Shown in pieces: positions 7,724-55,762 of a DNA stretch of 64,000 nt; positions within the stretch are counted from its first letter, which is position 1; each line of letters opens with the position of its first letter. The position numbers and the translations under genes were made by a program. The DNA comes from an uncultured Bacteroidales bacterium (GTDB taxonomy: Bacteria > Bacteroidota > Bacteroidia > Bacteroidales > CAYTAU01), in NCBI GenBank assembly GCA_964435855.1, contig CAYTAU010000004.1:15297-79296 (forward strand), given 5' to 3'. The notes below the pieces were generated by a model. It was not told where the DNA came from. It saw only the letters and a program-made list of their open reading frames with translations, and did not search any database.

Positions 7724-8290
7724 TTATTTTTTTTCTTCAGGTTTAGCTTTTTTTGCTTTAGGTTTTGCGTCAGAGCTTTTTGCAACTTTTTTTACTACTG
7801 GTTTTGTTGCTGGTTTTGCCTTTGCTTTTACTTCTGCTTTTGGAGTTTCTTTTACTTTAGCTTTGCTTACAACTTTTTCTGGTTTTTCTTCTTTTACAGG
7901 AGTTTCTTTTACTTTGGCTTTTGTTGCAACTTTTTCTGGTTTTTCTTCTTTTGCAGGAGTTTCTTTTTTTGTACTGCCTTTTTCAAGAATATCTTCAATT
8001 AATATTTCAGTAAAAAATTGTCTGTGACCATTCAATACTTTATACCCTTTTCGTCTTTTCTTTTTAAAAACTTTTACTTTATCTCCTTTAAGGTGAGTTA
8101 TCACTTTTGCTTTTATACTAGCGTTTTTTATAATTGGCTCGCCAACAATTACATCTTTATCATTATCAATTAGCAAAACTTTGTCAAAATTAAGTTTTGA
8201 ACCTTCATCATTGTTTAAACGATGAACAAATATTTTTTGTGATTTCTCAACTTTAAACTGTTGTCCTGCTATTTCTACTATTGCGTACAT
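7724..8290 (-). CDS. rplU: 50S ribosomal protein L21 with a Lys/Glu/Pro/Ala-rich C-terminal extension
   Basis: MYAIVEIAGQQFKVEKSQKIFVHRL...GHRQFFTEILIEDI is the bL21 core (about 100 aa). It is followed by about 85 aa of KETP.KEEKPEKV..KAKV repeats. It lies immediately upstream of rpmA, as in the usual rplU-rpmA operon. Confidence 0.9.
   Translation of the reverse strand: MYAIVEIAGQQFKVEKSQKIFVHRLNNDEGSKLNFDKVLLIDNDKDVIVGEPIIKNASIKAKVITHLKGDKVKVFKKKRRKGYKVLNGHRQFFTEILIEDILEKGSTKKETPAKEEKPEKVATKAKVKETPVKEEKPEKVVSKAKVKETPKAEVKAKAKPATKPVVKKVAKSSDAKPKAKKAKPEEKK
7842..7970. repeat. 57-nt tandem repeat (about 2.2 copies) inside the rplU 3' extension
   Basis: Units start at 7842, 7899 and 7956 (GGAGTTTCTTTTACTTT...). 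Each encodes 19 aa, KETP(V/A)KEEKPEKV(V/A)(S/T)KAKV. The repeat also creates the spurious plus-strand ORFs 7670-8002 and 7692-8027. Confidence 0.85.
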
Positions 8291-8384
8291 GTTTATATAA
8301 AATTTTACAAAATTTAGGACTGCAAAAGTATAAAAACTTTATTTCTTAAACAATATTATATTTTATTTATTAATTAGAGATTGC

Positions 8385-10124
8385 CTAAAACCTGTTTACA
8401 AATCCAAAATGAATTTTTGCAGAACGAAATTCTATTGGATTATCAAATTGTTTTCCAAGTGCATAGTTTATAGTGAAAATTCCTGCTTTTGTTTCAAAAT
8501 CTAATCCGAATCCAAATCCAAATGGCGTATCTGAAACGTATTCATTTATCTTTTTTTCATAAAACCCTCCATCAATAAAAGCATATATAGTACTGTTTTG
8601 TTCTATAATAAGACGATATTCAATTGTGCTTATTGAAAAAGCCGATGCAAAAACAGATTCTTCATCAAATCCACGAAGTGTTTTTAATCCCCCGATTTTA
8701 AATAATTCATTTTCAAATAATGTATTACTATACATGTATCCTGAATGATTTCTAAATTTAATTACCGTATTTTGAGAAAGAGGTAAAAAAACTGATGCAT
8801 CAATTTGTCCTTCTAATTGTTGTGTGTTTAGGTCAATATCTTCATAAATTTCAGGATTGATATTATTATTTTTCTTAATTTCTTTATTTCCTGCGCCAAT
8901 ATTCATAATAAGTGAAAATCCTTTGCGAGGATTGAATTTATAATCAAGATATTCAGTATAGATGCCAATTCCATATAAAACGGTATTTATGTCAGCATAT
9001 TGAGGCAGGGTAGTGGTGTATTCTAATCCGGTAGTTGAAATTAATGATGAGTTTTTGTTTTCAATATATCCTTTTATATAATTTGTTCCATCTATTAAAA
9101 ATAGTAATCCTAAATTACTGTTTACATTTAAATAACTAGTATCCTTTTTTAATAAAGTAAATGTTGCATCAATGCCAATTGGTTTTTCAAATAAAAAAGG
9201 ATACATAAATTTTGCATCTAGATTTTGTGATAATGACTCAAGTTTTTTCCAATTGAAAGAAATAATTTCACCTTTTTTAAAGGAGTTAATTAAAAACAAT
9301 CTTAATTCTCCTGTTAACAGCAATTTGCCTGTTGTTTTGTCATTCGGAACTATACCAAGTATGCCATTGAATTGATTTGCTTTTTTATCATCTATATATA
9401 AATATATTTTAGAATTTTCTGTGCCAAAACCAACTTCGGAACTTCTTATTTGTTTTATAAATATGAGTTCTTTTAATTTATTTTCTACAGCAATTATTTT
9501 TTTTTCGTTATAAAAATCTCCTTGCTTAATTCCAATATGCTTTTGAATATAATTGTCAGATATTTTTGCGTTTCCTTTTATTATTATGCTGTCAATTTTT
9601 ATTAAATTATTTTTTAAAATTTGCAAATCAGCAAATACACTATCGTTTTTTATTTTTACATTTTCCAAATAAATCTCAGAAAAAGGGTATCCATTATTTT
9701 CATAATACTGAAGCAATTTTTCAATAGTGATGTTCAGTTTGTTGATATTAATAGTTTTCTTGTTTATTTTTTTATAATTGATATTTAATTTTCGCAATAT
9801 AAAATTCTCGAAATTTAGCAAAGAAAAATTACCCCATTTATATTGTTCCCCAACATGAAAATACGCTCTTATTATTGTAGAATCAGTAATAATACTATCA
9901 AGAGATGCTAAAATATAAGCATCGTTAATTAACTCGTTTCTGATTGAATTAATTTCTTTATAAGTTTCAAGAGTATCGTTAAAAGTTTTATTTAAATATT
10001 TTTTATTAAAATCAATTTCTTGATTGTTAGTAATAATTTGTAAATGTATTTTATTTTTTTGAGCGGTGATATTATGTGATATCAGAAGAAATAAAATTAA
10101 TATTTTAATGTTTTTTTTACTCAA
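8385..10124 (-). CDS. Omp85-superfamily outer-membrane protein (POTRA domain + beta-barrel; BamA/ShlB-like)
   Basis: Signal peptide MSKKNIKILILFLLISHNITAQ. POTRA-like segment IIIKGNAKISDNYIQKHIGIKQGDFYNEKKI. C-terminal barrel with GGLKTLRGFDEESV and terminal ...IHFGFVNRF ending in Phe. Confidence 0.7.
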   Translation of the reverse strand: MSKKNIKILILFLLISHNITAQKNKIHLQIITNNQEIDFNKKYLNKTFNDTLETYKEINSIRNELINDAYILASLDSIITDSTIIRAYFHVGEQYKWGNFSLLNFENFILRKLNINYKKINKKTININKLNITIEKLLQYYENNGYPFSEIYLENVKIKNDSVFADLQILKNNLIKIDSIIIKGNAKISDNYIQKHIGIKQGDFYNEKKIIAVENKLKELIFIKQIRSSEVGFGTENSKIYLYIDDKKANQFNGILGIVPNDKTTGKLLLTGELRLFLINSFKKGEIISFNWKKLESLSQNLDAKFMYPFLFEKPIGIDATFTLLKKDTSYLNVNSNLGLLFLIDGTNYIKGYIENKNSSLISTTGLEYTTTLPQYADINTVLYGIGIYTEYLDYKFNPRKGFSLIMNIGAGNKEIKKNNNINPEIYEDIDLNTQQLEGQIDASVFLPLSQNTVIKFRNHSGYMYSNTLFENELFKIGGLKTLRGFDEESVFASAFSISTIEYRLIIEQNSTIYAFIDGGFYEKKINEYVSDTPFGFGFGLDFETKAGIFTINYALGKQFDNPIEFRSAKIHFGFVNRF

Positions 10125-11205: not shown

Positions 11206-11904
11206 TTATCCTAACTCACTTATTTTTTCAAGTTCTTCAATATTATTTATTGATATTTTTCTTCCATCAATACTTATAACTTTTTCGTTTGCAAAAATTG
11301 AAAGAGTTCTAATTGCATTTGCAGTTGTCATATTAGATAAATTTGCAATATCTTCTCGTGAAAGATAAATTTTTATTGTTTTACCGTTTTCTTCTAATCC
11401 ATAAGTATCTTTCAGAAATAATAATGATTCGGCTAATCTTCCGCGAATATGTTTTTGAGTTAGAGTAATGGTTCTGCTGTTTGAAAATCCTAATTCTCTT
11501 GCAAGAGAGCGAATCATTACCAAAGAAAATTCCGAATTTGATTTTAATATTTTAAAAAGACTGTTTTTTTCTATGATACATGCAATAGAATCTTCAATTG
11601 CTATTGCTGATGCTATATGTTTTTCCTCAGCAAATAATGCTCTATAGCCAATAAAGCCAACAGGTTTTGCCATGCGCACTATTTGATCTCTACCACCTAC
11701 ACCTTCTTTAAATATTTTTACCTTTCCTTCCGAAAGACATATTAAACCACTTGGTTTGTCCCCTTCTTTAAATATTACTTCATTTTTTTTATAAGAAGTA
11801 ATTATTAGTTTTTTTGATAATTCATTTTTTTCTTCTTCAGATAAGACATTAAAAACAGATTTTGGTTCGTAAACGCAATTTCTTGATTTATTGTTATTTA
11901 CCAT
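11206..11904 (-). CDS. Crp/Fnr-family transcriptional regulator
   Basis: cNMP-binding-like beta-roll (FKEGDKPSGLICLSEGKVKIFKEG..GRDQIVR) plus a C-terminal HTH (SREDIANLSNMTTANAIRTLSIFANEKVI). 232 aa. Confidence 0.85.
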   Translation of the reverse strand: MVNNNKSRNCVYEPKSVFNVLSEEEKNELSKKLIITSYKKNEVIFKEGDKPSGLICLSEGKVKIFKEGVGGRDQIVRMAKPVGFIGYRALFAEEKHIASAIAIEDSIACIIEKNSLFKILKSNSEFSLVMIRSLARELGFSNSRTITLTQKHIRGRLAESLLFLKDTYGLEENGKTIKIYLSREDIANLSNMTTANAIRTLSIFANEKVISIDGRKISINNIEELEKISELG

Positions 11905-12000
11905 GATAATAATTTTTGTTTATATTTATAAACATTATGTTTGAAAACATGCAAAAATAAGAAAATACTTAATATTACCCAATTTTTTTAAAAAGAAACT

Positions 12001-12028
12001 GCAACCTTATTATAAAAAGTTGCGTCAT
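12001..12028 (+). promoter_or_regulatory. candidate ECF-type promoter (GCAACC-N16-CGTCAT)
   Basis: Weaker relative of the motif at 36369 and 45799: AAC core, 17-nt spacer, then CGTC. It lies about 80 nt upstream of the 12107 ATG, and a TACTTTTG -7 box sits at 12066-12073. Confidence 0.25.
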
Positions 12029-12106
12029 TAAATTAAATAGTATTTTTTTTTAAATAAAAAAATTATACTTTTGTTTTTTAAATTAATAACTAAAATTATA
12101 TGAATT

Positions 12107-14089
12107 ATGAAAAAAATTACTTTTATTATAGCTATGGTTTTAATAGCTAGTTTTACTTATGCTCAACAGGTTAATAATTTTCCTGCTGAAAAAGTTGTGA
12201 AAAATCTTAACAAAGAAAATGTTAAAATTCATACGAGCATGTCAGCACCACAGCCAAGAGCTCCGGGTGATGTAATTATATCTTATGATTTTGATGGTGC
12301 TTTACCTACAGGTTGGACAACAACAGACAATACATTGAATAATTATGTATGGATTTGGTCTGATATCGGTCCTATTGGTGCTTATACAGGATATCCAGAT
12401 TGGGACGACCCAATTGGTGCTATAGCATCAACAACAAGCGCAAATGGTTTTATGTTATTTCAGGCAGATAACTATAATACCGATCAGGGAACAGGTTTAA
12501 TAGTTACTTCTCCTGTAGATCAGGATTCTTATATTGAAACTGAATCTATTGATTTTACAGGTGAACCATCAGTTCTTTTAACTTTTCAGCAAAGATTTAG
12601 AATTTGTTGTATGTGGGATACAAATGCAGATTTGTATGTTGAAGTTACCAATAATGGTGGTGCTACATGGACAGCTTATGAAGTAGGTTCAATTTTTGCT
12701 GAAATAAATGATCATTCTTGTGGTTTTACAGAAGTTAATCAGGTTGAATTAAATATTTCTGATATTGCAGGTAACCAATCAGCTGTTTCTGTTAGATTTC
12801 ATATGCTTGGAGTTAGTCATTATTACTGGATGATTGATGATGTTGAATTTATTGAAGGATATGCTAATGATATTATTTTAGTAAAAGATTATGCTCATGT
12901 TTTTATGTTATCAAATGGTTTTTACGGACAAATACCATTAACACAAAGCAGATATATGCCAATAGCATTTGAAACCGCAATTTATAATAATGGTGCTAAT
13001 GCAGCAACAAATGTAGCTTTAAATGTAGATATTACAAGATCAGGAGATTCTTGTTATTCGGAAAACAGTCATGCAGAGTATCCCTTACCTAGCTTACTAA
13101 CTTTAGGAAGAGATTCAATAACTCTTGGTGTAGATATACCAGGTTCTGTTTGGTTACCAACAGCATTTAGTGCTGATAATTTTGGCACTTATGAATTTAC
13201 GTATAGCCTTTTAATGGATTCTGTTGACCAAAATACTGCAAATGAAACCGCATCCCGTAGTATTTTGATAACAGAAAACACTTATGCACGTGATGGTGGT
13301 ATTTTAACAGGTAGAGTTAGTCCATCAGGCTGGGTAAGTGGAGGAACTGATGGTGATATGTTCGCTGCTTCTTATGATATAAACAATGATACAGCAGAAG
13401 TATGTACAATAAGTGGGGGTGGAACACCAAGTGAAATAAATTCACTTACATTCTATGTTCATCCAAAAACTACTGTTACTGCACCAACGCCATCAATTAG
13501 GGGTGCAATCTGGATGTATGATGGAGCGGGAAATTCTTTCAGTGAAATTCTTACTACCGATTTTTATGATATTCAGGCAGCAGATACATCAAAATGGGTA
13601 ACTCTTGATATACAAAAAGATGGATTTTCAGAATTTTTAATTAACGGATTTTATTTGGCAGTTCTTGAAATAACTTCATATAATGGTGGTGATTTCTATA
13701 TTGGTGAAGATGGTGAATCTCCACAAGGTACAATGGGAACTTTCTGGAAAATGGCAGCAGATGCAGATTTTGCACAATTTGCAAATTATGCAAAAAGCAT
13801 AATGTTGCGAGCTGTTTTCGAGCCTTGTATTGAAAATAGTATAAATACAATTTTAAAATTAGAAAATGTAAAAATGTTTCCAAATCCAACAACAGGTATG
13901 TTAAATATTAGCAATGCAGATGGCGCTACTGTTTATATTTATAATATTATGGGAGATATTGTAAAAACAGTTGAGCAAATTAATAATACCAGTAGAATTG
14001 ATATTTCTGGTTTATCTAATGGTAATTACATTGTAAAAGTTGTTGCAGACCAAGGCATTTCAACACAAAAAATTACTTTAGTTAAGTAA
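12107..14089 (+). CDS. T9SS cargo protein (secreted; type-A C-terminal sorting domain; N-terminal domain possibly MAM/choice-of-anchor-like)
   Basis: Signal peptide MKKITFIIAMVLIASFTYAQQ. The C-terminus MFPNPTTGMLNISNADGATVYIYNIMGDIVKTVE...GLSNGNYIVKVVADQGISTQKITLVK is a typical Por secretion tail. YWMIDDVEFIE suggests a MAM/choice-of-anchor-like domain (tentative). Confidence 0.85.
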   Translation: MKKITFIIAMVLIASFTYAQQVNNFPAEKVVKNLNKENVKIHTSMSAPQPRAPGDVIISYDFDGALPTGWTTTDNTLNNYVWIWSDIGPIGAYTGYPDWDDPIGAIASTTSANGFMLFQADNYNTDQGTGLIVTSPVDQDSYIETESIDFTGEPSVLLTFQQRFRICCMWDTNADLYVEVTNNGGATWTAYEVGSIFAEINDHSCGFTEVNQVELNISDIAGNQSAVSVRFHMLGVSHYYWMIDDVEFIEGYANDIILVKDYAHVFMLSNGFYGQIPLTQSRYMPIAFETAIYNNGANAATNVALNVDITRSGDSCYSENSHAEYPLPSLLTLGRDSITLGVDIPGSVWLPTAFSADNFGTYEFTYSLLMDSVDQNTANETASRSILITENTYARDGGILTGRVSPSGWVSGGTDGDMFAASYDINNDTAEVCTISGGGTPSEINSLTFYVHPKTTVTAPTPSIRGAIWMYDGAGNSFSEILTTDFYDIQAADTSKWVTLDIQKDGFSEFLINGFYLAVLEITSYNGGDFYIGEDGESPQGTMGTFWKMAADADFAQFANYAKSIMLRAVFEPCIENSINTILKLENVKMFPNPTTGMLNISNADGATVYIYNIMGDIVKTVEQINNTSRIDISGLSNGNYIVKVVADQGISTQKITLVK

Positions 14090-16171: not shown

Positions 16172-16705
16172 ATGTTTAAAAAAAAAGAAAAAAAAGTTGT
16201 TCTATATTTTGTTGATGATGATGAATTACACTTAAAAATTATTCAGGGAAAATTTAATACATCCTCAAATTATGAATTTTATTCATATAAAACAGGTGAA
16301 GAGTTTCTTGATAACCTTATAAAAAAGAAAATCCAAAAAAATATTTATCAAATTGTTATTCTTGATTATTACTTAAATAGCAATGAAAATAGTGATGCCA
16401 AAAACGGCATTGAAATTTTAAAAATAGTTAAAGAAATAAAACCTTCTATTGAGGTAATTATGTTATCTGCGATGGATGATGTCAACATAGTTACAACAGC
16501 AATGCATTATGGTGCAATTACATTTGTAAAAAAAAATGAGAACTGTTTTACCAGAATTCAGAATAATATAAATTGGATAATTAGCCAAAAAGACCTTGAA
16601 AGCAAAAAACGCTCTCATAGAATAACAAGATATTTCTTTTTTGTAGTTTTATCAGTTATTATTGTTGCTTCATTATTGTATATTATGGTAGAGTATTCCC
16701 GTTAA
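16172..16705 (+). CDS. stand-alone receiver domain with a C-terminal transmembrane anchor
   Basis: REC signatures are LYFVDDDELH, QIVILDYYLN (acceptor Asp), VIMLSAMDD and ITFVKK. The C-terminal hydrophobic helix is YFFFVVLSVIIVASLLYIMV. Confidence 0.75.
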   Translation: MFKKKEKKVVLYFVDDDELHLKIIQGKFNTSSNYEFYSYKTGEEFLDNLIKKKIQKNIYQIVILDYYLNSNENSDAKNGIEILKIVKEIKPSIEVIMLSAMDDVNIVTTAMHYGAITFVKKNENCFTRIQNNINWIISQKDLESKKRSHRITRYFFFVVLSVIIVASLLYIMVEYSR

Positions 16706-18897
16706 TTTATTTTTAGTCCAATTATTAAAATGTCGTCAAGTTGTGCTAAATTGCCTTTCCATGTATTAAAATTATTTTCAAGAATCTTTTTTTGTTTCTT
16801 CATATTTTCGTTATGAATTTCTAAAAGTAGTTTTTTGAAATTTTTCGATTTTAATTTATGACCATATTCTCCTCCAAATTGGTCAATATAACCATCTGAA
16901 AATAAGTATAAAATATCATCTTTATTAATTTTTATTTTGTGGTTTGTAAAAGGCACATCTTGTTTTGGCGATACACTAACAGGCATTCTGTCTGCTTTAA
17001 ATATTTCTAATTCATTGTTTCTTATTATGTATAAATGATTGTGTGCTCCTGCAAATTCTACCATGTTATTATCAGTATCTATAGTGCAAACAGAAATATC
17101 CATTCCGTCTTTAACTATTTGTGACATATTTTCAATTTTATTATAATCAATTTTAGTTTGATGAAGAGAATCAATTATATTCTTTCTTAAAAGGTCAAGA
17201 ATATCAGAAGGTTTTAAGATGTTTTTTTCAATAACAATTTCGTTTAAAAATGTAATTCCTATCAAGCTCATAAAAGCACCGGGTACTCCATGTCCTGTAC
17301 AATCTGCTGCAGCAATAATAATTTTATTATTAAACTTATGAAACCAGTAAAAATCACCACTTACAATATCGCGGGGAAGAAATAAAATAAAACTTTCCGG
17401 TAAAATGTTATGCAAATCGTTCTCGACAGGCAGCATTGCAGTTTGAATACGCTTTGCATATTCAATACTATCTGTTATGTCTTTATTCTGATCAAAAATT
17501 GCATCTCTTTGTGATTCAATTTCATCTTTTTGAGTTTCTATTTCTTCTTTTTGTTGTGATATTTCTTCATTTCTTAAAGCAAGTTGTATATTTTTTTTCT
17601 TTTTATCGCAAAATTGCTTGTAAAAAACAATGAAAAATATAAGAATAAGTATTATTCCAATTATAATTACATAAATAATAATTCGTTGTTTATTGATTTG
17701 TGCCTGATTTTTTTCAATTTCTAATTTTTGTAATTTTTTATCTTTATTTAACAGTTCAATTTTTTTTTCTTTTTTTTCTGTTTCAAATTGTGTTATTAAC
17801 TCAGATAATTTTTCCTGTTCAGCAATATCGTATATAGAATCGTGAATTAGCAAATATTCTTCATGCGATAATAGAGCATTTTTATAATCTCCAATATCTT
17901 TATATGTCGAGTACATGTGATAATTTGCACCCTCTTCATATTTAATTGAATTTAATTCTTTGGATAATTGCAATGTTTCTTTAAAAAATTCAAGTGCTAA
18001 TTTTGGTTTATTAAGTTTATTATAAGCTTTACCAATACCGGAAATACAAAGAATAATATCTTCTTTAAAATCATATTCTTTAAAAATTGCTAAAGCACGG
18101 CTATATTCATTAATTGCATCGTTGTAATCTTCTTGGTATAAATAAATATCTCCAATATTTGCAAGACATTGTGCAAAATGTCTTTTATATCCTAACTCTT
18201 TAAAGGTTTTATAGGCTTTTGAAAAATATAAAATTGCATTCTCATATAGTTTTTTTCTTTTGTAAATAATACCTATATTCATTGATGTTGTAGCGTAAAC
18301 ACCTTTTTTCCCCAATTTTTTGAATATTTTATAAGCCATTTTGTAATATTCTAATGCTTCATCATATTTATCTAACATTAAATATAAATTTCCAATTGTA
18401 GCATGTATCATTGCAATTCCATTTTCATTATTTAAAGCTTCAAATATATTTAGCGCTTTCCAATAATTTTCCAGAGCTTTGTCTTCTACAACTTCACGAT
18501 AGTAAGTATTACCAATATTACCATAAGCACGTGCAATATTAATAGAATCTTGTTTTTTTATTGAATATTCTAAAAATTCGTTATAATATTTTCTGGCAAT
18601 TTTATAATTCCCTTTTTCAATTTGTAGTATGCCAAGATTACTAGCCGCTGTATTTTTTCTTTTTATATCATTAAGGCTATCAGCTAATAAATAGGCTTCT
18701 TCAGACCATTTAATACTGTTTGCAGGATCTGAATACATTTCATCATAAGTAAGTTGATTTAATACGTCAATTCTTAAGGTGTCTTTTGCTTTGACTAGCA
18801 ATTGTTTTAAACTGTCAATTTTAGAATTTTGAGAAAATGATATAAAACTTACTAAAAATAAGAAAATAAAAGGTATATACTTTTTTATTGAAATCAA
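16702..18897 (-). CDS. TPR-repeat / transmembrane / coiled-coil / PP2C-type (SpoIIE) serine phosphatase
   Basis: Signal peptide, then many TPR units (Y..A...Y.KAL.I) and a TM helix IIIYVIIIGIILILIFFIVF. A Q/E-rich coiled coil follows. SpoIIE motifs are VSGDFYWF, AAADCTGHGVPGAFMS, DGMDISV and LFSDGYIDQFGG. Confidence 0.85.
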   Translation of the reverse strand: MISIKKYIPFIFLFLVSFISFSQNSKIDSLKQLLVKAKDTLRIDVLNQLTYDEMYSDPANSIKWSEEAYLLADSLNDIKRKNTAASNLGILQIEKGNYKIARKYYNEFLEYSIKKQDSINIARAYGNIGNTYYREVVEDKALENYWKALNIFEALNNENGIAMIHATIGNLYLMLDKYDEALEYYKMAYKIFKKLGKKGVYATTSMNIGIIYKRKKLYENAILYFSKAYKTFKELGYKRHFAQCLANIGDIYLYQEDYNDAINEYSRALAIFKEYDFKEDIILCISGIGKAYNKLNKPKLALEFFKETLQLSKELNSIKYEEGANYHMYSTYKDIGDYKNALLSHEEYLLIHDSIYDIAEQEKLSELITQFETEKKEKKIELLNKDKKLQKLEIEKNQAQINKQRIIIYVIIIGIILILIFFIVFYKQFCDKKKKNIQLALRNEEISQQKEEIETQKDEIESQRDAIFDQNKDITDSIEYAKRIQTAMLPVENDLHNILPESFILFLPRDIVSGDFYWFHKFNNKIIIAAADCTGHGVPGAFMSLIGITFLNEIVIEKNILKPSDILDLLRKNIIDSLHQTKIDYNKIENMSQIVKDGMDISVCTIDTDNNMVEFAGAHNHLYIIRNNELEIFKADRMPVSVSPKQDVPFTNHKIKINKDDILYLFSDGYIDQFGGEYGHKLKSKNFKKLLLEIHNENMKKQKKILENNFNTWKGNLAQLDDILIIGLKIN

Positions 18898-36156: not shown

Positions 36157-36368
36157 TCAAACTGACATAATAATTTTTACAGAGGAAATATTTATAAATA
36201 ATTTCATAGCTTTTCTAAAAACTATATTTATCTCTTAATTGCCTGAAAGGTTGTTTTTTACAGTCAGGGCAAGCTATATTTACTTATAATCAACACATAA
36301 ATGTTAATATCAACAATCTAATTTCTTGATAAAATCGACTTTATTTATTAATTTTACAATATATTTTA

Positions 36369-36397
36369 GGCAACCTTTATTTATTTTTTACGTCTAA
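36369..36397 (+). promoter_or_regulatory. candidate ECF-type promoter (GGCAACC-N15-CGTCTAA) within a conserved 17-mer
   Basis: The 17-mer TTTTAGGCAACCTTTAT (36364-36380) is identical to 45794-45810. GTCTAA lies 11 nt downstream here (12 nt at the other locus). No TAnnTTTG box lies between it and the ATG at 36430. Confidence 0.4.
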
Positions 36398-36429
36398 ACA
36401 GTAAATATTAAAACTTAAAACATACAATT

Positions 36430-37086
36430 ATGAAAAAAATGTTATTAAAGCAGTTTGTTACAATAGTTTTGTTATTGTTAACCTTTGTTAGTTTTTCACA
36501 AGTTTCAAACACAATATTAAGCTTTGAATTAAAAGATAATAGTCTATTTAGTAGGGATGCGGCCAATAATTTGCATTGTGCTTTTATTATAAAAAATTTA
36601 GATGAAAGTCAATTGACAGAGTTTATTACAGCTTTCACTCAAAGTACCGGTGTTTTAAAATTCAATACAACAGAAAATGAAAATTCTGAAATTCAGGCAG
36701 ATGCTACATTTGAAAAAGCAGACATTAACTATTTTTATAATCTTTTTAAAGATAATGGAGTTTCTGCCATAGAAGTAAATGGCAAAACAACAAAAATACA
36801 ATATATGGAGTATAAAACAGATCCATTACCTTCTTCCGCTATTTCTAAAAATACTTTAGACAAATTATCTTCTCCAGTTGTTTTTCAAAATGCTTCAGAC
36901 CCAAATTCATTAGATTATTATGATAAGCGAATTGCTGATGCAGAATATAAAATATTATGGGTACAGCACGATAAGAAAGAAATTAATAAGGCAATTAAAA
37001 GCGGTTGGTTCGAAAATGCTGATAAAACACTTATGCAACTAAAAACTGATAAAGAAAAATTTATTAAAAATTATGAAAAAAAATAA
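36430..37086 (+). CDS. hypothetical secreted protein (coupled to the downstream adhesin gene)
   Basis: Signal peptide MKKMLLKQFVTIVLLLLTFVSFSQ. 218 aa with no recognised motif. The stop overlaps, or lies 4 nt before, the start of the next gene. Confidence 0.6.
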   Translation: MKKMLLKQFVTIVLLLLTFVSFSQVSNTILSFELKDNSLFSRDAANNLHCAFIIKNLDESQLTEFITAFTQSTGVLKFNTTENENSEIQADATFEKADINYFYNLFKDNGVSAIEVNGKTTKIQYMEYKTDPLPSSAISKNTLDKLSSPVVFQNASDPNSLDYYDKRIADAEYKILWVQHDKKEINKAIKSGWFENADKTLMQLKTDKEKFIKNYEKK

Positions 37087-40000
37087 AACTATGAAACGTT
37101 TATTTTTAATTATTTTATTATTCGGATTATTTTTTCAAAATATTTATGCACAACAACCATTTTGTGCAGATGCGGAACCATTTTGCACAGGAACAGTTTA
37201 TAACTATCCTTTAGCAACCGGAACATCTTCAGAAACAGGACCAGACTATGGTTGTTTGTTAACACAACCAAATCCGGTTTGGTATTTCCTTCAAATTTCT
37301 GTTGCCGGAGATATTAACATTCATATGGAATCTACACCGGGTTCATATGATATTGATTTTATATGTTGGGGACCATTTACTACTGCAACAGGTGCATGTA
37401 CAGCAGGATTAACAGCTGGTAACACTGTAGATTGTAGCTATAGCACAGCGTCTGTGGAAGATTGTTATATTCCAAATGCCCAAGTTGGTGAATTTTATAT
37501 GTTTCTTTTAACAAATTATTCTAATAGTACAACTGATGTGGAGTTTTCATCTGGAACAAGTACCGGCGAAACCGATTGCAGTATTGTTGTTCCTTGTACA
37601 ATGACAAATATTACAGTAAATGTAGGTCTATGTGATCCTGCTACAAACACTTATGATATTACAGGCACGATTGTATATATTGATCCACCTGCAACAGGAA
37701 GTTTAATTATTGAGGATGACGCAGGTTTTAGTGATTCTTTTTTACCTACTCCAAACTTTTTTAGTCCTACTAATTTTAGTATAACAGGTATTCCCGCAGA
37801 TGGTCTTACACATACCCTATATGCTTATTTTACTGATGATGGTTGTAATTATACTATAACATATACTGCTCCGGTGTCCTGTACATGTGTAACTCCCCCC
37901 GGTACTATAACTGTATCTACACCTGATTGTCATGATTCTCCGGTAACATTTACATATGTTCCAGGTACTGTTGATCCCGGAGCTACCTATGCATGGAATT
38001 TTGGTGCAGGAGCTACTCCTGCTACAGCAAATACTGTTGGACCTCATGTAGTAACATATTCAACTCCTGGCACTACTCCAAATATTAGTTTAACAGTAAC
38101 TGATCCCGGTGTTTGTGCTCCTGATGTTATTAACACTTCTGTTACAATTCCAACTGAAATTACGGTTACAAACTCAAGTTCTACACCAGAAGTATGTGGA
38201 GCATTGGATGGTGCAATATCTGTTACAGCAGCAGGAGGAACAGGAGCTTTAAGTTATAATATTGGCTCAGGTGGACAAGCAACAGGTAATTTTACAAATC
38301 TTCCTGCCGGTCCATATACCATTACAATTACTGATGCCAATGGCTGTACTATTACAGAATTAGTAACAGTAGGTACAAGTGGTACTGTTACTTCAGGTTT
38401 TACTGCAAGTGCAGACCAGTGTTTAACAGGTAATTCATTTGACTTTACTAATACAGGAGATACTGGTGGCGGAATTACATGGACATGGTCATTTCCTGGT
38501 GGAACACCAGCATTTTCAGCAAATGAAAATCCAACAGGAATAACATGGACTATTCCCGGACAATACGATGTAACACAAACAACACATCTTGGAGGTTGTA
38601 ATACTACTACTACAATAACAATTGAAGTGTTTGCAGAACCTATTCCAACATTAAGTTCTACAAATGTTACCTGTAATGGGGCATGTGACGGAACAGCAAG
38701 TGTAGATTTAGTTTATACCGATTATTCATGGGATAATGGTGCTAACACACAATTAATAACAAATTTATGCGATGGACAATATTGTGTTACTGTTACCGAT
38801 GTTAATGGATGTACCGGAACAGCTTGTGTTACAATAATCCAAACATCAGGAATTACCATAAATTCTGAAACAGCAAGTGATGTTACTTGTTTTGGTGATA
38901 ATGATGGTTCTGTAGTTGTAAGTGCAACGGGAGGTACTCCTCCTTTAACTTATACTGATGGAACAAGCTCAAATCAAACAGGAAGTTTTCTCGGACTTGG
39001 TGGTGGTACTTATATTGTTACTATAACTGATGGAAATGGATGTACAACAACAAGCAGTGCATTAGTTGTTATTGAACCTGCTGCTATTGTAATTGATTCT
39101 CAATCGTCAACTGATGTTTCGTGTTATGGCTATAATGATGGTAGTATTACAGTTACAGCGTCAGGAGGTGCAGGAGGATTGACTTATTCAATTGATGGTA
39201 ATCAGCAATCAGCAGGAGATTTTACAAATTTATCTGCCAATATTTATACTGTTACAGTTACAGACATTAATGCTTGTACAAATACGGCAGGATTTACAAT
39301 AACAGAACCTGCTGAAATTATTATATCCATTACATCGGGTCAAATTGTATGTAATGGACAAACAGCAAATATTAATGTTACAATAGTTGGTGGAAACCAA
39401 CCATATACATATCATTGGAGTCATGATGCATCTATAAATTCATCTTCTATTTTTGTAGCTCCTACAACAGAAACGGTATATAGTGTGTATGTTATGGATG
39501 CAAATGGTTGTGCTACTTCAACTGTAACTTCAACAGTTAGTGTTTCTCCACCGGTTCAATTGGACCTTAATACACAAAATGATTCTGTTTGTCCCGGAGA
39601 ACCTGCTGTTATTACAATTACACCATCTTCAGGAATAGGACCTCCATACTTAACTTATGTTAATGGAAATGTACAAGATTCTCCTTTTACTGTATATCCA
39701 TCAGAAGCAACAACATATATCGTTACCGCAATGGATGCATGTGGCTCGGTTGCAACGGAATCTATTACAATTAACGTTTACGAACTTCCTCCTATTAGTT
39801 TTGCTCCCAATATTTCTAGTGGATGTCAGCCATTAGAAGTTCATTTTGTTGAGACCAGTCCTGATGAAGGACAAACATTTGTTTGGAATTTTGGAGATAT
39901 TGATAACAATAATCTTGCTTACGACAAATCTCCTGTACATACTTATGATGATCCGGGTATTTATGATGTTACATTAACAGTTACTTCAGTAGATGGATGT

Positions 40001-40576
40001 GTTAATACTGATACGAAACTCAATTTGATAACAGTATATCCACAGCCTATTGCAAAATTTATTGCAGACCCTGAAGTTGTAAGTATCATCAAACCGATGA
40101 TCAATTTTATTAATCATTCGTCATTAAATGATATAAATTTCTGGTTCTTTGGTGATGGAGATTCTTCTAGTGCAGAAAACCCTTGTCATATTTATCCAAC
40201 ATATCCAACAGGTACTTATAATGTTGAATTAATTGTATCAACTATTCACGGATGTAAAGATACTACATTCATAATAGTACAAGTTCAAAATGAATATACT
40301 TTTTATGCTCCTACAGCATTTTCACCTGATTTTGATGGAATAAATGATTATTTTATTGTTAAAGGAAATGGTATTGACAAAAGAAATTTTCATTTGATAA
40401 TTTACGACAGGTGGGGAGAAGTTATTTTTGAAACAAACGACATTGATGAAGGCTGGGATGGCAGAGTAAAAGGTGGTGATATTGGTAAAAATGCTACTTA
40501 TACATGGCTTGCTATTTATAAAGATCTTAGAAGTGTTGAACATCAAGAAGCCGGTGCTGTTACTATAATTCGATAA
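37073..40576 (+). CDS. large secreted adhesin-like protein: PKD domains, SprB-type repeats and a T9SS type-B (gliding-motility-associated) C-terminal domain
   Basis: Signal peptide (MKRLFLIILLFGLFFQNIYAQ from the second ATG at 37091). PKD-like FDFTNTGDTGG...W.F and NFGDIDNNN...H.Y. SprB-type repeats (C.G..DG...V.A.GG..PLTYS). Type-B CTD YTFYAPTAFSPDFDGINDYFIVKG...LIIYDRWGEVIFE...GWDGRVKGG...YTWLAIYKD. Confidence 0.9.
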   Translation: MKKNKTMKRLFLIILLFGLFFQNIYAQQPFCADAEPFCTGTVYNYPLATGTSSETGPDYGCLLTQPNPVWYFLQISVAGDINIHMESTPGSYDIDFICWGPFTTATGACTAGLTAGNTVDCSYSTASVEDCYIPNAQVGEFYMFLLTNYSNSTTDVEFSSGTSTGETDCSIVVPCTMTNITVNVGLCDPATNTYDITGTIVYIDPPATGSLIIEDDAGFSDSFLPTPNFFSPTNFSITGIPADGLTHTLYAYFTDDGCNYTITYTAPVSCTCVTPPGTITVSTPDCHDSPVTFTYVPGTVDPGATYAWNFGAGATPATANTVGPHVVTYSTPGTTPNISLTVTDPGVCAPDVINTSVTIPTEITVTNSSSTPEVCGALDGAISVTAAGGTGALSYNIGSGGQATGNFTNLPAGPYTITITDANGCTITELVTVGTSGTVTSGFTASADQCLTGNSFDFTNTGDTGGGITWTWSFPGGTPAFSANENPTGITWTIPGQYDVTQTTHLGGCNTTTTITIEVFAEPIPTLSSTNVTCNGACDGTASVDLVYTDYSWDNGANTQLITNLCDGQYCVTVTDVNGCTGTACVTIIQTSGITINSETASDVTCFGDNDGSVVVSATGGTPPLTYTDGTSSNQTGSFLGLGGGTYIVTITDGNGCTTTSSALVVIEPAAIVIDSQSSTDVSCYGYNDGSITVTASGGAGGLTYSIDGNQQSAGDFTNLSANIYTVTVTDINACTNTAGFTITEPAEIIISITSGQIVCNGQTANINVTIVGGNQPYTYHWSHDASINSSSIFVAPTTETVYSVYVMDANGCATSTVTSTVSVSPPVQLDLNTQNDSVCPGEPAVITITPSSGIGPPYLTYVNGNVQDSPFTVYPSEATTYIVTAMDACGSVATESITINVYELPPISFAPNISSGCQPLEVHFVETSPDEGQTFVWNFGDIDNNNLAYDKSPVHTYDDPGIYDVTLTVTSVDGCVNTDTKLNLITVYPQPIAKFIADPEVVSIIKPMINFINHSSLNDINFWFFGDGDSSSAENPCHIYPTYPTGTYNVELIVSTIHGCKDTTFIIVQVQNEYTFYAPTAFSPDFDGINDYFIVKGNGIDKRNFHLIIYDRWGEVIFETNDIDEGWDGRVKGGDIGKNATYTWLAIYKDLRSVEHQEAGAVTIIR

Positions 40577-44067: not shown

Positions 44068-45303
44068 CTAAATATCATATTCTTTAATTTTTCTGTAAAG
44101 CGTCCGTTCAGAAATCCCAAGTTCTTTTGCCGCCTTTTTTCTTTTATTATTGTACTTCTCTAATGCTTTTATTATTAATTCTTTTTCTTTCTTTTCGAGC
44201 GATAATGATTCTTCAACATATTCTTCGGTATCTTGTATATTTGAATTTTCTGATTCTTCAATTTTTATTTTTTCTTTGTCTTCTGTTTTTGTTTCAAATT
44301 CATAAGATTTTGATTCCTTATATAATTTATTTATAAGAACCTCTTTATTTTCCCCAATATTATATTTATCCGTTTCATCTTGAATTATATCATAAACCAT
44401 TTTTTTCAATTCATTTACGTCATTTTTCATGTCGAAAAGTATTTTATAAAGTATTTCTCTTTCCGAATTGAAAGTCTTTTCGTCAATACCCTTATTATAA
44501 AGCACTGGCAAATAAGATCCTTCATTTAAAGGTAAATATTTTTTTATTGTTTCTGCATTTATTTCTCTGGGTTTTTCTATAACGGATATTTGTTCAGTTA
44601 TATTTTTTAATTGCCGTATATTTCCTGACCAATTAAATTTTGTTAAAATTTGTTGAGCTTCCTCATCAAGTTTTAATACAGGCATGCGGTTTTTTTCGGC
44701 AAAATCCTGTGCAAATTTTCTAAAAAGTAAATAAATATCGTCTTTTCTATTTCGTAATGCAGGAATAAAAATTGGAACAGTATTTAATCTGTAAAACAGA
44801 TCTTCGCGAAATGTTCCATTACGAATTGCTTGCTGAATATCAACATTTGTAGCAGCAATAACTCTTACATTTGTTTTTTGTGTTTCAGAAGAACCAACCT
44901 TTAAAAATTCTCCCGATTCAAGAACTCTAAGTAATCTAACCTGAGTTGATAAAGGTAATTCTGCAACTTCATCAAGAAAAATAGTTCCGTTATTGGCAAC
45001 TTCAAAATATCCTTTTCTTTTGTCATGTGCTCCGGTAAATGAACCTTTTTCATGTCCGAAAAGTTCAGAATCGATTGTGCCTTCTGGAATTGCCCCACAG
45101 TTAACAGCAATGTATTTTCCATGTTTTCTTGAACCGAATTGATGAATCAACTGAGGGAATACTTCTTTTCCTGTACCACTTTCACCCGAAATAAAAACAG
45201 ACAAATCGGTAGGAGCAACTTGTATAGCTATATCTATTGCTCTGTTTAACTCACTTGAATTCCCAATAATTCCAAATCTTTGTTTTATTTGTTGTCTATC
45301 CAT
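44068..45303 (-). CDS. sigma-54-dependent transcriptional activator (AAA+ and Fis-type HTH, no receiver or sensor domain)
   Basis: ISGESGTGKEVF (Walker A), ELFGHEKGSFTGA (GAFTGA-type loop), TIFLDEV, RVIAATN, FREDLFYRL and a C-terminal AAKELGISERTLYRKIKEY. The AAA+ core begins within about 10 residues of the N-terminus. Confidence 0.9.
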   Translation of the reverse strand: MDRQQIKQRFGIIGNSSELNRAIDIAIQVAPTDLSVFISGESGTGKEVFPQLIHQFGSRKHGKYIAVNCGAIPEGTIDSELFGHEKGSFTGAHDKRKGYFEVANNGTIFLDEVAELPLSTQVRLLRVLESGEFLKVGSSETQKTNVRVIAATNVDIQQAIRNGTFREDLFYRLNTVPIFIPALRNRKDDIYLLFRKFAQDFAEKNRMPVLKLDEEAQQILTKFNWSGNIRQLKNITEQISVIEKPREINAETIKKYLPLNEGSYLPVLYNKGIDEKTFNSEREILYKILFDMKNDVNELKKMVYDIIQDETDKYNIGENKEVLINKLYKESKSYEFETKTEDKEKIKIEESENSNIQDTEEYVEESLSLEKKEKELIIKALEKYNNKRKKAAKELGISERTLYRKIKEYDI

Positions 45304-45411
45304 ACTTGCACAAAGTTCATCAAAAATAATTTATGCAAAAATATAAATTATTACTGACATTTTGTCAATATATTTTATATTTCCTTAAATATTATTGTTC
45401 TGTGTTTATTT

Positions 45412-45572
45412 TATATTTCGCTCTTACAGAGCTTAGAGTCGTGGTTATTAGTATGTTTTATAAATATTTAACTCATGACGGAATTTAAAAGAGTAGTACG
45501 TTTTAGGCGGACAAAATGTTTATAGCAAAATGTATTCATTAAAATCATGGCCCCGTTATGTGCGAAATATTT
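45412..45572. repeat. inverted pair of about 75-nt intergenic repeat units
   Basis: ATATTTCGC (45413-45421) is the inverse of GCGAAATAT (45562-45570). Each arm carries a ...TTT(T/G)(A/C)TATAAA(T/C)AT... core, and the arms read FYKYL.. and CYKHF.. when translated. Confidence 0.5.
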
Positions 45573-45798
45573 ATCAAAGTATTATCAATAGTGAGTTTTT
45601 ATAATACCGTAGTTGTTTTTAGTTTAACATTAATAATTTCTACTGTTTTATGCAAGGGAAAAACCACAAAACAGAGAAATCCGATTTTTCGGGATTAAAG
45701 AATTTTGAAAAAACCGTTTAGCTATTCGAACCCATTTAACGGATAAATATAAAAAAATCTAAAATAAAATTGGGAATTTCCTTTTTTTGTTACTTTTA

Positions 45799-45828
45799 GG
45801 CAACCTTTATCAAACATTTTGAGTCTAA
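45799..45828 (+). promoter_or_regulatory. candidate ECF-type promoter (GGCAACC-N16-AGTCTAA) within a conserved 17-mer
   Basis: TTTTAGGCAACCTTTAT (45794-45810) is identical to 36364-36380. GTCTAA sits at 45823-45828, 16 nt before the ATG at 45845. Confidence 0.4.
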
Positions 45829-45844
45829 TAAGAAACTAAAAGCC

Positions 45845-46771
45845 ATGAAAAAACTTATACTACTATCAGCATTACTATTATTAGTGCTATTTACAAATGC
45901 ACAAATAGTAAATATCCCAGATACTAATTTTAAAGCAGCATTAATAGCACATAACCCTGTTATTGATACCAACAGTGATGGAGAAATACAAGTTAGCGAA
46001 GCAAGTTCTTTTACAGGAATGATTTATATTAATAATCCAATTATTTCGGACCTTACAGGAATTGAGGCTTTTATTTCTCTTACTCAATTATATTGTAATT
46101 TTACTCAAATAATATCCTTAGATCTAAGCAATAATACTGCTCTTTCTGTTTTAAATTGTGAATTTAACCATTTAACTACATTAGATGTAAGCAATTGCAC
46201 GGCTCTCACTAATTTAGTTTGCTATGATAATCAAATAAGCTCTTTAGACTTAAGCAACTGTACGGTTCTTACTAATTTAGAATGTTGTGTTAATCAGTTA
46301 ACCACATTAGATGTAAGCAATAGTACGGCTTTTACTGCTTTACAGTGTTGTAATAATCAATTAACATCCTTAAATGTAAAAAATGGGAATAATACCAATT
46401 TCACTTATTTTCATGCTCCTGGCAATCCCAATCTATTTTGCATTGAGGTAGATAATGCTGTGTGGTCAACAGCTAACTGGACTGATATAGATACTGTAGC
46501 TTCATTTAGTGAAGATTGTTCTTTAAGTGTTCCAAATGAATTACAAATTGCAGAACTAAAGGTTTTTCCTAATCCAACAATAGGAAAAATAAGCGTGCAG
46601 GTAGAGGGAGTTGTAGGAATTGAGGTAATGGATATCACAGGGAAAAACCTTCAAGGTTTTGAAAACCTTGAAGGTTTGGATGTTGATTTAAGCCATCAGC
46701 CAAAAGGCATCTATATAATAAAAGTAACCACAAACAATGGCGTGGCGGTTGAGAAGGTTATTTTGGAGTAG
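45845..46771 (+). CDS. leucine-rich-repeat protein with T9SS C-terminal sorting domain
   Basis: Signal peptide MKKLILLSALLLLVLFTNAQ. About 22-aa LRR units (LDLSNNTALSVLNCEFNHLTTLDVSNCTALTNLVCYDNQISS...). C-terminal tail VFPNPTIGKISVQ...KGIYIIKVTTNNGVAVEKVILE. Confidence 0.85.
   Translation: MKKLILLSALLLLVLFTNAQIVNIPDTNFKAALIAHNPVIDTNSDGEIQVSEASSFTGMIYINNPIISDLTGIEAFISLTQLYCNFTQIISLDLSNNTALSVLNCEFNHLTTLDVSNCTALTNLVCYDNQISSLDLSNCTVLTNLECCVNQLTTLDVSNSTAFTALQCCNNQLTSLNVKNGNNTNFTYFHAPGNPNLFCIEVDNAVWSTANWTDIDTVASFSEDCSLSVPNELQIAELKVFPNPTIGKISVQVEGVVGIEVMDITGKNLQGFENLEGLDVDLSHQPKGIYIIKVTTNNGVAVEKVILE
46645..46677. repeat. perfect 33-nt palindrome inside the LRR-protein coding sequence
   Basis: AAACCTTCAAGGTTTT-G-AAAACCTTGAAGGTTT has 16-nt arms around a central G. 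Each arm is itself a 7+1+7 palindrome (AAACCTT/AAGGTTT). It encodes ..LQGFENLEGL.. in the sorting domain. Confidence 0.9.
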
Positions 46772-55034: not shown

Positions 55035-55625
55035 TTAATAATACATTAATGTCATATTATTTTCTTTTACCATTTTTCTCATATTTATCAATGCGTACCT
55101 CATTCTTCCAAGAGCAGTGTTAATACTCACATTGGTTTCTTCTGATATTTCTTTAAAACTCAAGCCGATATAATGTCTTAAAACAACCACTTCTCGTTGT
55201 TCATCAGGCAATTTATTTAATAATTTTTTTACATCATTTTCAATTTGATTCGTTATCAACTCATCTTCAATATTTTTTGAATCACCATTTTTATTGCAAT
55301 AATAATCGAAATCTTTTTCTTCATGAGTATAGGTTTTTGCATTAGAAGCCTTTCTGTAATAATCTATAATTAAATTATGAGCTATTCTAATAACCCATGA
55401 TAAAAACCTGCCATTATCAGTGTATTTTTTCGCTTGCAAGGATTTAATGACTTTCAAAAAAGTATCCTGAAAAATGTCTTCAGCCAGGTCGGGTTTTTTA
55501 ACTGTGATAAGAATATAAGTGTAAACTTTATTCTTGTAACGTTCCATTAGAACTTCGAAGCTCGAATTGTTTCCACCTTGAAACTGCTTTACGAGTTCAT
55601 AATCATCTAGATTACGATAATTCAT
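55035..55625 (-). CDS. ECF-type (sigma-70 family) RNA polymerase sigma factor
   Basis: Region 2 is DIFQDTFLKVIKSL...FLSWVIRIAHNLIIDYYRK. Region 4 is LPDEQREVVVLRHYIGLSFKEISEETNVSINTALGRMRYALINMRK. 196 aa. No anti-sigma gene follows it. Confidence 0.9.
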   Translation of the reverse strand: MNYRNLDDYELVKQFQGGNNSSFEVLMERYKNKVYTYILITVKKPDLAEDIFQDTFLKVIKSLQAKKYTDNGRFLSWVIRIAHNLIIDYYRKASNAKTYTHEEKDFDYYCNKNGDSKNIEDELITNQIENDVKKLLNKLPDEQREVVVLRHYIGLSFKEISEETNVSINTALGRMRYALINMRKMVKENNMTLMYY

Positions 55626-55629
55626 ATTA

Positions 55630-55637
55630 ACCTCCTT
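55630..55637 (-). promoter_or_regulatory. strong Shine-Dalgarno sequence AAGGAGGT upstream of the sigma-factor start
   Basis: The mRNA reads AAATTTAAGGAGGTTAAT-ATG, with 5 nt between GGAGG and the ATG. A second AGGAGG lies at the complement of 55675-55680. I saw no comparable SD at the other gene starts I inspected. Confidence 0.6.
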
Positions 55638-55762
55638 AAATTTGGTTAGCGTAGAATTTTACTCGATAAACAGTCCTCCTAATTTTAAATTGTTACTATC
55701 TTAACGTAAGATATTATTGTTTATTGTATTTTTAACAAATTTTTTTTTGTTAAACAATTTTT

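Follow-up and report, generated by a model that had tools for sequence, protein, structure and literature searches.

A probable ECF-type promoter motif upstream of T9SS cargo and adhesin genes in an uncultured Bacteroidota

Two loci encoding secreted proteins in a metagenome contig from an uncultured Bacteroidota are preceded by the same 17 nucleotides, and the question raised is whether this identity reflects chance, a dispersed fragment or a shared promoter element. The window (the whole stretch of DNA analysed: 64,000 nt, 29.7% G+C) contained both copies. The two 17-mers are most probably (a probability of about 0.8) the -35 halves of ECF-type promoters, and the likeliest sigma factor would be one of the THC0290_0638 type, encoded outside the window. 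This -35/-10 promoter reading, already proposed in the initial annotation, was favored because homologues retain both boxes, and the distance between them, in front of their genes, because the motif recurs upstream of cargo genes, and because it sits at a sigma factor operon, in an autoregulatory position. The features of the two loci were as follows:

36364 to 36380, + strand: 17-mer copy 1, TTTTAGGCAACCTTTAT (exact match), T-tract plus extended -35 region
36369 to 36375, + strand: predicted promoter 1, -35 core GGCAACC, kept in the orthologous upstream regions L067, L069, L064 and L077
36391 to 36397, + strand: predicted promoter 1, -10 element CGTCTAA (AAC-N16-CGTC; GTCTAA at 36392 to 36397)
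36402 to 36405, + strand: promoter 1, transcription start predicted by analogy with the F. psychrophilum SM6 promoters (5' UTR of about 27 nt)
36430 to 37086, + strand: 218-aa signal-peptide protein, first gene of the operon, with three homologues
37073 to 40576, + strand: 1167-aa SprB-repeat/PKD adhesin-like protein with a type B T9SS CTD (CHU_C), overlapping the 218-aa gene by 14 nt
45794 to 45810, + strand: 17-mer copy 2, TTTTAGGCAACCTTTAT (exact match)
45799 to 45805, + strand: predicted promoter 2, -35 core GGCAACC, kept before a 50%-identical LRR gene in L070
45822 to 45828, + strand: predicted promoter 2, -10 element AGTCTAA (AAC-N17-AGTC; GTCTAA at 45823 to 45828)
45833 to 45836, + strand: promoter 2, transcription start predicted by the same SM6 analogy (5' UTR of about 11 nt)
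45845 to 46771, + strand: 308-aa LRR protein with a type A T9SS CTD (Por_Secre_tail)

The initial annotation had described an identical 17-mer at two positions, a GTCTAA 11 to 12 nt beyond each copy, and ATGs of signal-peptide genes 16 to 32 nt further on. This description held in full: both copies matched exactly on the + strand, the gap to GTCTAA was 11 nt in copy 1 and 12 nt in copy 2, and the distance from GTCTAA to the ATG was 32 nt (36430) and 16 nt (45845), respectively, with gene descriptions that agreed. The AAC core lies at 36372 to 36374 in copy 1 and at 45802 to 45804 in copy 2, which deviates from copy 1 in having AGTC instead of CGTC and a spacer 1 nt longer.

The identity of the two 17-mers is by itself weak evidence, since repeated exact 17-mers with at least 5 G/C were present in 32% of Markov-simulated windows. 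A search for the exact 17-mer in 185,579 reference genomes gave 64 matches, which is about the chance frequency; the only informative matches were L064 (a close relative) and L018, and none of the 185,579 genomes was truly multi-copy (the sole contig set with two matches resembles duplicate contigs). The possibility of a larger dispersed repeat, also raised in the initial annotation, was not borne out: the flanks of copies 1 and 2 did not align beyond the 17-mer, so that the copies are not part of such a repeat. A dispersed repeat or mobile element fragment was rejected for lack of similarity beyond the core and of any multi-copy genome. Most of the repeated 17-mers in the window came from the gene for ribosomal protein L21 (7724 to 8290, - strand), a protein of 188 aa whose C-terminal extension derives from a 57-nt tandem repeat (7842 to 7936).

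Unlike the bare 17-mer identity, a bipartite core, GGCAACC-N16/17-GTCT(A/T)A, has good support. GCAACC-N14-18-GTCWA was observed twice in the window (0.13 expected), and GCAACC-N15-17-GTC three times (0.37 expected, P ~0.003) in the 83-kb contig that results from adding 19 kb, in extensions on both sides, to the window. All three instances were intergenic, in sense orientation and followed by a T9SS cargo gene. There were no further motif instances in the added 19 kb, though two more cargo genes are located there, and five of the eight T9SS cargo loci of the 83-kb contig were without the motif.

The third of these instances precedes a gene for another T9SS cargo protein:

12000 to 12029, + strand: third, weaker motif instance, TGCAACC-N16-CGTCATT
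12066 to 12073, + strand: predicted primary-sigma -7 box TACTTTTG (TAnnTTTG) of the third gene
12107 to 14089, + strand: 660-aa protein with a type A T9SS CTD, third motif-bearing gene

The looser instance that had been claimed at 12001 to 12028 thus corresponded to GCAACC-N16-CGTC starting at 12001, and the 660-aa cargo gene (12107) has a predicted dual promoter, formed by the weaker ECF-type motif and a TAnnTTTG box. An exact TAnnTTTG was absent from 36157 to 36429 and from 45304 to 45844, the upstream regions of the genes behind copies 1 and 2, as had been stated for both of them; about 15 other genes of the window had an exact TAnnTTTG within 150 nt upstream. The gldN gene of F. psychrophilum, with an ECF-type and a primary promoter, parallels the third gene. 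A Crp-family regulator (11206 to 11904) is divergent from this gene, and the regions 2616 to 6038 (+ strand) and 16172 to 18897 of the window were rich in genes for signalling, which encode a protein of 1140 aa (receiver plus multi-PAS), a second receiver that stands alone, and a TPR/SpoIIE phosphatase protein.

Homologues of the downstream genes allowed the extent of the conserved sequence to be delimited. The 218-aa protein had only three homologues in a collection of 5.8 billion proteins, and the two distant ones (50-52% identity) lead the same kind of operon. Their upstream regions contained TTAAGGCAACC-aaaaccctttaaaat-CGTCTATG in L067 (that is, TTAAGGCAACC-N15-CGTCTAT) and TTTTGGCAACC-aaaaattaaaaattt-CGTCTAAAT in L069 (TTTTGGCAACC-N15-CGTCTAAAT): both boxes and the N16 spacing were retained, the spacers were unrelated, and the CTTTAT part of the 17-mer was exchanged for CAAAA in the orthologues. 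A 308-aa LRR/CTD gene in L070, 50% identical to the copy 2 gene, was preceded by CAGGCAACC-N17-GTCTTA, 21 nt before the ATG and with a spacer unrelated to that of copy 2. Since the boxes and their spacing were kept in the homologues while the spacer changed, the conserved unit is, as judged from these upstream regions, GGCAACC plus (C)GTCT(A/T)A, narrower than the whole 17-mer. Short boxes at a fixed distance with a free spacer are what recognition by a sigma factor predicts.

A scan of metagenomes with the pattern TAGGCAACCTTTAT-N11/12-GTCT gave 22 loci, chosen by DNA motif alone. About seven were evident chance matches (coding or G+C-rich DNA) and the L081/L088 pair was doubtful. The remaining loci were AT-rich and intergenic, and most of them extended to GTCTAA or GTCTTA. 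The genes downstream encoded type A cargo (a 1992-aa protein, also present in L018 from the genome scan, and a 262-aa SprB-repeat protein), type B cargo (a 1266-aa PKD/CHU_C protein), a secreted protein of 503 aa that has no CTD, and a small lipoprotein; also downstream were the operon orthologous to that of copy 1 and one for an ECF sigma. In the sample that yielded the window, four additional transcription units for cargo, in a cluster next to porV, had the motif as well. L101 (7372 to 18270) and L103 (1 to 17376) of JGI Ga0307990_1000032 form a large T9SS cargo island adjoining porV, with tandemly duplicated modules (cargo, cargo, DUF4190) and the ECF-type motif at the module heads; the LRR/CTD paralogues of L103 were without the ECF-type motif and shared a conserved promoter region with TATTTTGC (TAnnTTGY, SM5-like).

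Another motif copy in L067 (CAGGCAACC-N16-CGTCTTA; 632 to about 480, - strand) was followed by approximately 110 nt of non-coding sequence and a strong intrinsic terminator, as would be expected of a promoter. The non-coding stretch, with a folding z-score of -2.85, is a candidate ECF-dependent small RNA; a comparison with Rfam gave no family for it, and only a tRNA in the window. In the same locus, TAAGCAACC-N17-GTCTTA was located before a hydrophobic ORF of 34 aa, between genes that meet tail to tail (808 to 650, - strand). In L079 (144 to 545), which belongs to the L018 family, the motif was located some 400 nt before the gene for the 1992-aa cargo protein, and the long leader, which has a 50-aa ORF, may contain further regulatory elements. 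A relative of the 17-mer with three mismatches (TTTTAGGCAATCTCTAA; window 8374 to 8390, - strand) was present upstream of rplU, without a GTC box. In the L018 family (L018/L082) the true motif is intergenic beside rplU-rpmA-serS, on the opposite strand, and this proximity to rplU is probably a coincidence.

The consensus was compiled from 17 collected instances. CAACC and GTC were invariant (17/17 each), G preceded CAACC in 15 of the 17, T followed GTC in 16, and C preceded GTC in nine; the spacing between CAACC and GTC was 17 nt in 11 instances, 16 nt in five and 15 nt in one. The search patterns had fixed parts of the motif in many of the 17, with the exception of the five derived from orthology, and for the instances retrieved by pattern the independent evidence consists of the unfixed positions and the gene contexts. 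The properties of ECF promoters (an AAC core at -35, a CGT/GTC core at -10, and a spacing of about 16-17 nt with a free spacer) were all present; the spacer was 1 nt shorter in one family and 1 nt longer in copy 2. Beyond T9SS cargo, the motif-bearing genes included the lipoprotein, the secreted protein without a CTD, the small RNA candidate and the sigma operon. The small regulon of secreted or T9SS proteins under an alternative sigma factor suggested in the initial annotation was therefore retained as far as the set includes T9SS cargo, but not as one restricted to T9SS: the regulon is wider than T9SS cargo, and many T9SS cargo genes were without the motif.

One ECF sigma factor is encoded in the window:

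55035 to 55625, - strand: window ECF sigma factor

The initial annotation had named this protein as a candidate, and it proved a poor one: the motif was absent upstream of its gene, and it was only 26% identical to the Winogradskyella sigma factor whose operon bears the motif. It was not favored as the cognate sigma for both reasons. Its gene has AAGGAGG, a strong match to the Shine-Dalgarno type, 5 nt before the ATG and a second AGGAGG about 55 nt upstream (55626 to 55690, - strand). This is unusual in Bacteroidota, where initiation led by Shine-Dalgarno sequences is generally absent.

The motif was instead found at a sigma operon of Winogradskyella (L089), where GGCAACC-N16-CGTCTTT was located 47 nt upstream of three genes. 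The first encodes an ECF sigma of 187 aa, the second, which overlaps it, a membrane protein of 263 aa (putative anti-sigma), and the third a secreted protein of 369 aa. Two further Winogradskyella species had CCAGACAACC-N16-CGTCT(A/T)TATAAATAG before the orthologous operons, with different spacers, ACAACC-N16-CGTCT being the part kept there; among the matches listed, three Winogradskyella species had the motif in this autoregulatory placement. ECF autoregulation usually shows itself in this way, by a motif at what would be the promoter of the sigma gene itself, and published ECF promoter discovery rests on motif conservation at this position (PMC7776599). The Winogradskyella operon was syntenic with THC0290_0637-0640 of F. 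psychrophilum: both have a polyprenyl synthase directly upstream, sigma and anti-sigma genes that overlap by 14 nt, a third gene for a secreted protein, and gldB at a distance of a few genes. By synteny the Winogradskyella sigma is the counterpart of THC0290_0638, which ECFfinder placed in group ECF21; NCBIfam gave generic ECF matches for the Winogradskyella sigma, and its assignment to ECF21 is by synteny and not by sequence classification. The similarity of the motif to the Winogradskyella promoters suggests an ECF21-type sigma for the organism studied here, a link limited by the fact that AAC/CGT-type specificities can be common to different ECF groups. Searches (tblastn) with the sigma, the anti-sigma and the third protein against 0.9 Mb of collected loci detected no orthologue in the lineage of the window, and the T9SS cargo genes beside the Winogradskyella sigma were without the motif. 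A sigma 36% identical to that of Winogradskyella was encoded in L022 (1 to 613), with CCAACC-N16-GCTCTTTATAAAA upstream, possibly an autoregulatory promoter of a related type whose -10 box has changed.

The explanation that competes most directly is that a different ECF sigma reads the motif, either the one encoded within the window or a T9SS regulator resembling PorXY-SigP. Several observations lend it some weight: T9SS genes are under SigP control in P. gingivalis (PMC4800418), the motifs predicted for the seven ECF sigmas of F. psychrophilum overlap, and motifs of the AAC/CGT type are common to many ECF groups. We nevertheless consider it unlikely, although a serious competitor, given the missing upstream motif and low identity of the window sigma, the dissimilarity between GGCAACC/GTCT and the SigP motif of Kadowaki et al. 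(C(T)AAA(G/C/T)A(T)A(C)T(A/G)A), and the fact that, among the matches listed, only the ECF21-type operon carries the motif (in three species). It is improbable that the boxes are binding sites of a transcription factor, for instance a response regulator, with transcription starting from an unrecognised primary-sigma promoter. Strings with one mismatch to TAnnTTT are frequent in this AT-rich DNA and several regulators are encoded nearby, but a pair of short, asymmetric boxes held 16-17 nt apart, across a spacer of free sequence, marks recognition by a sigma factor and not binding by a dimeric factor; moreover, the motif lies 16-80 nt before most start codons in regions without an exact TAnnTTTG, and it holds the promoter position of an ECF sigma operon.

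Copy 2 also adjoins the gene of an activator, which was considered and not linked to the motif:

44068 to 45303, - strand: sigma-54 enhancer-binding protein, divergent from the LRR gene

This neighborhood, together with the resemblance of AGGCAAC to the -24 box TGGCAC, might point to a sigma-54 promoter served by the divergent protein, but such a reading is very improbable. The obligatory -12 GC (GG-N10-GC) was absent from every instance (TT in copy 1, CA in copy 2); the -12 position was unconserved, whereas the GTCT box 16-17 nt away was conserved; and copy 1 and the other instances had no adjacent activator. The sigma-54 reading was rejected on the TGGCAC-N5-TTGC pattern, which did not fit, and on the missing -12 GC. 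Equally remote is the idea of a chance repeat, or of a dispersed or duplicated fragment without function. The simulated and genome-wide frequencies of the 17-mer are in its favor, and one pair of L101 instances lies inside tandemly duplicated modules; against it, the flanks of the two copies were unrelated while GTCTAA followed both, the core was kept at 50% protein identity, and it recurred in unrelated contigs at the same position relative to genes.

The ECF-type promoter reading was compared with known systems. The nearest documented parallel is offered by the F. psychrophilum SM6 promoters (Guerin et al. 2021; PMC9723704), which are of the ECF type, with AAC-N16-CGT and a mapped transcription start 11 nt after the G; the G of CGT sits at -11 (CGT box -12 to -10), and the promoters are located upstream of gldN, porU, small RNAs and a sigma/anti-sigma operon. 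They share with the motif described here the AAC-type -35, the CGT-type -10, the N16 spacing, and the presence downstream of T9SS-related genes, small RNAs (here a candidate) and a sigma/anti-sigma operon. They differ in their looser boxes (GTAAC/ACAAC/ACAAT and CGTATA/CGTTTA, as against the sharper GGCAACC and GTCT(A/T)A), in the CGT box (here C is not invariant and T follows GTC), and in their targets, which are T9SS machinery (gldN, porU) instead of cargo and adhesin genes. Furthermore, SM6 is tied to THC0290_1774 and not to the ECF21 sigma THC0290_0638.

ECF promoters outside this phylum offered a more distant comparison, the E. coli RpoE promoter. Its consensus is GGAACTT-N16-TCAAA (with the preceding G, GTCAAA), reportedly from work by Rhodius in 2006 and Campagne in 2014, with an AAC-containing -35 followed by T-rich bases and an envelope-related regulon that includes small RNAs. 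The motif described here resembles it in the AAC of the -35, the 16-nt spacer and the GTC of the -10, but has GCAACC for GGAACTT and GTCTAA for GTCAAA, and belongs to another phylum and sigma group. PorXY-SigP of P. gingivalis is a case of an ECF sigma that governs T9SS-related genes (PMC4800418), but it differs in its unrelated motif, in its T9SS-component targets, and in an activity exerted via PorX and not via a membrane anti-sigma.

According to passages of two papers (PMC10927553, PMC13088901), ECF21/Dma is a Bacteroidota-only group that includes Das1-Dma1 and Das2-Dma2 of B. thetaiotaomicron and EcfO-Reo of B. fragilis, and the known ECF21 regulons given there relate to vesiculation (NigD1) or to oxidative stress and not to cargo of the T9SS. 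Synteny connects the motif-bearing operon with the one that carries the ECF21 classification in F. psychrophilum. Unlike the Dma systems, those of flavobacteria have the anti-sigma and the putative outer-membrane part encoded by separate genes. No promoter motif appeared in the term-matched text of these two papers, and a literature search on GCAACC with ECF in Bacteroid lineages returned nothing relevant.

The following mechanism is proposed. The functional unit would be bipartite: a -35 box, (T-rich)-A-G-GCAACC, and a -10 box, (C)GTCT(A/T)A, with AAC and (C)GT 16-17 nt apart and a spacer of free sequence. Transcripts made by RNA polymerase with the cognate ECF sigma would begin some 11 nt beyond the G of GTC (near 36403 and 45834), so that the 218-aa/type-B-adhesin operon and the LRR cargo gene would each have a short leader. 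The genes at 36430 and 45845 would both lack a primary-sigma promoter, and the regulon would be silent until the anti-sigma releases the sigma. The likeliest sigma would be an orthologue from a three-gene operon that Flavobacteriaceae conserve (sigma, membrane anti-sigma and secreted "sensor" protein), the counterpart of THC0290_0638-0640 of F. psychrophilum, of ECF21, the group of Bacteroides Das1/EcfO, and its operon would be located elsewhere in the genome of this organism, outside the window. What the analysis shows is the motif, with its enrichment, conservation, gene associations and place at a sigma operon; we infer that transcription begins from it, at which positions, and which sigma acts in this organism.

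Most probably an ECF-type promoter, the motif is a real regulatory element of an ordinary kind, and the advance is incremental. Its modest novelty consists in a consensus that can be put to use and in the proposed connection with the ECF21 family of sigmas. Little is known about the regulation of T9SS cargo outside P. gingivalis, and the papers searched gave no promoter consensus for the Bacteroidota-only ECF21 group. The bipartite motif can be scanned for across genomes to predict the joint deployment of adhesins and enzymes, and it names a hypothesis on the controlling sigma/anti-sigma operon that can be checked in F. psychrophilum or F. johnsoniae. The anti-sigma partner in the ECF21 system senses the outer membrane, and the phenotypes known so far for this system are limited to vesiculation and oxidative stress in Bacteroides. 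We tentatively suggest, with more doubt than confidence, that an ECF21 system in flavobacteria-like lineages may switch on a subset of T9SS adhesins and cargo through GGCAACC-N16/17-GTCT(A/T)A. If true, this would be the first promoter consensus for the ECF21 family and would tie envelope sensing directly to the deployment of surface proteins.
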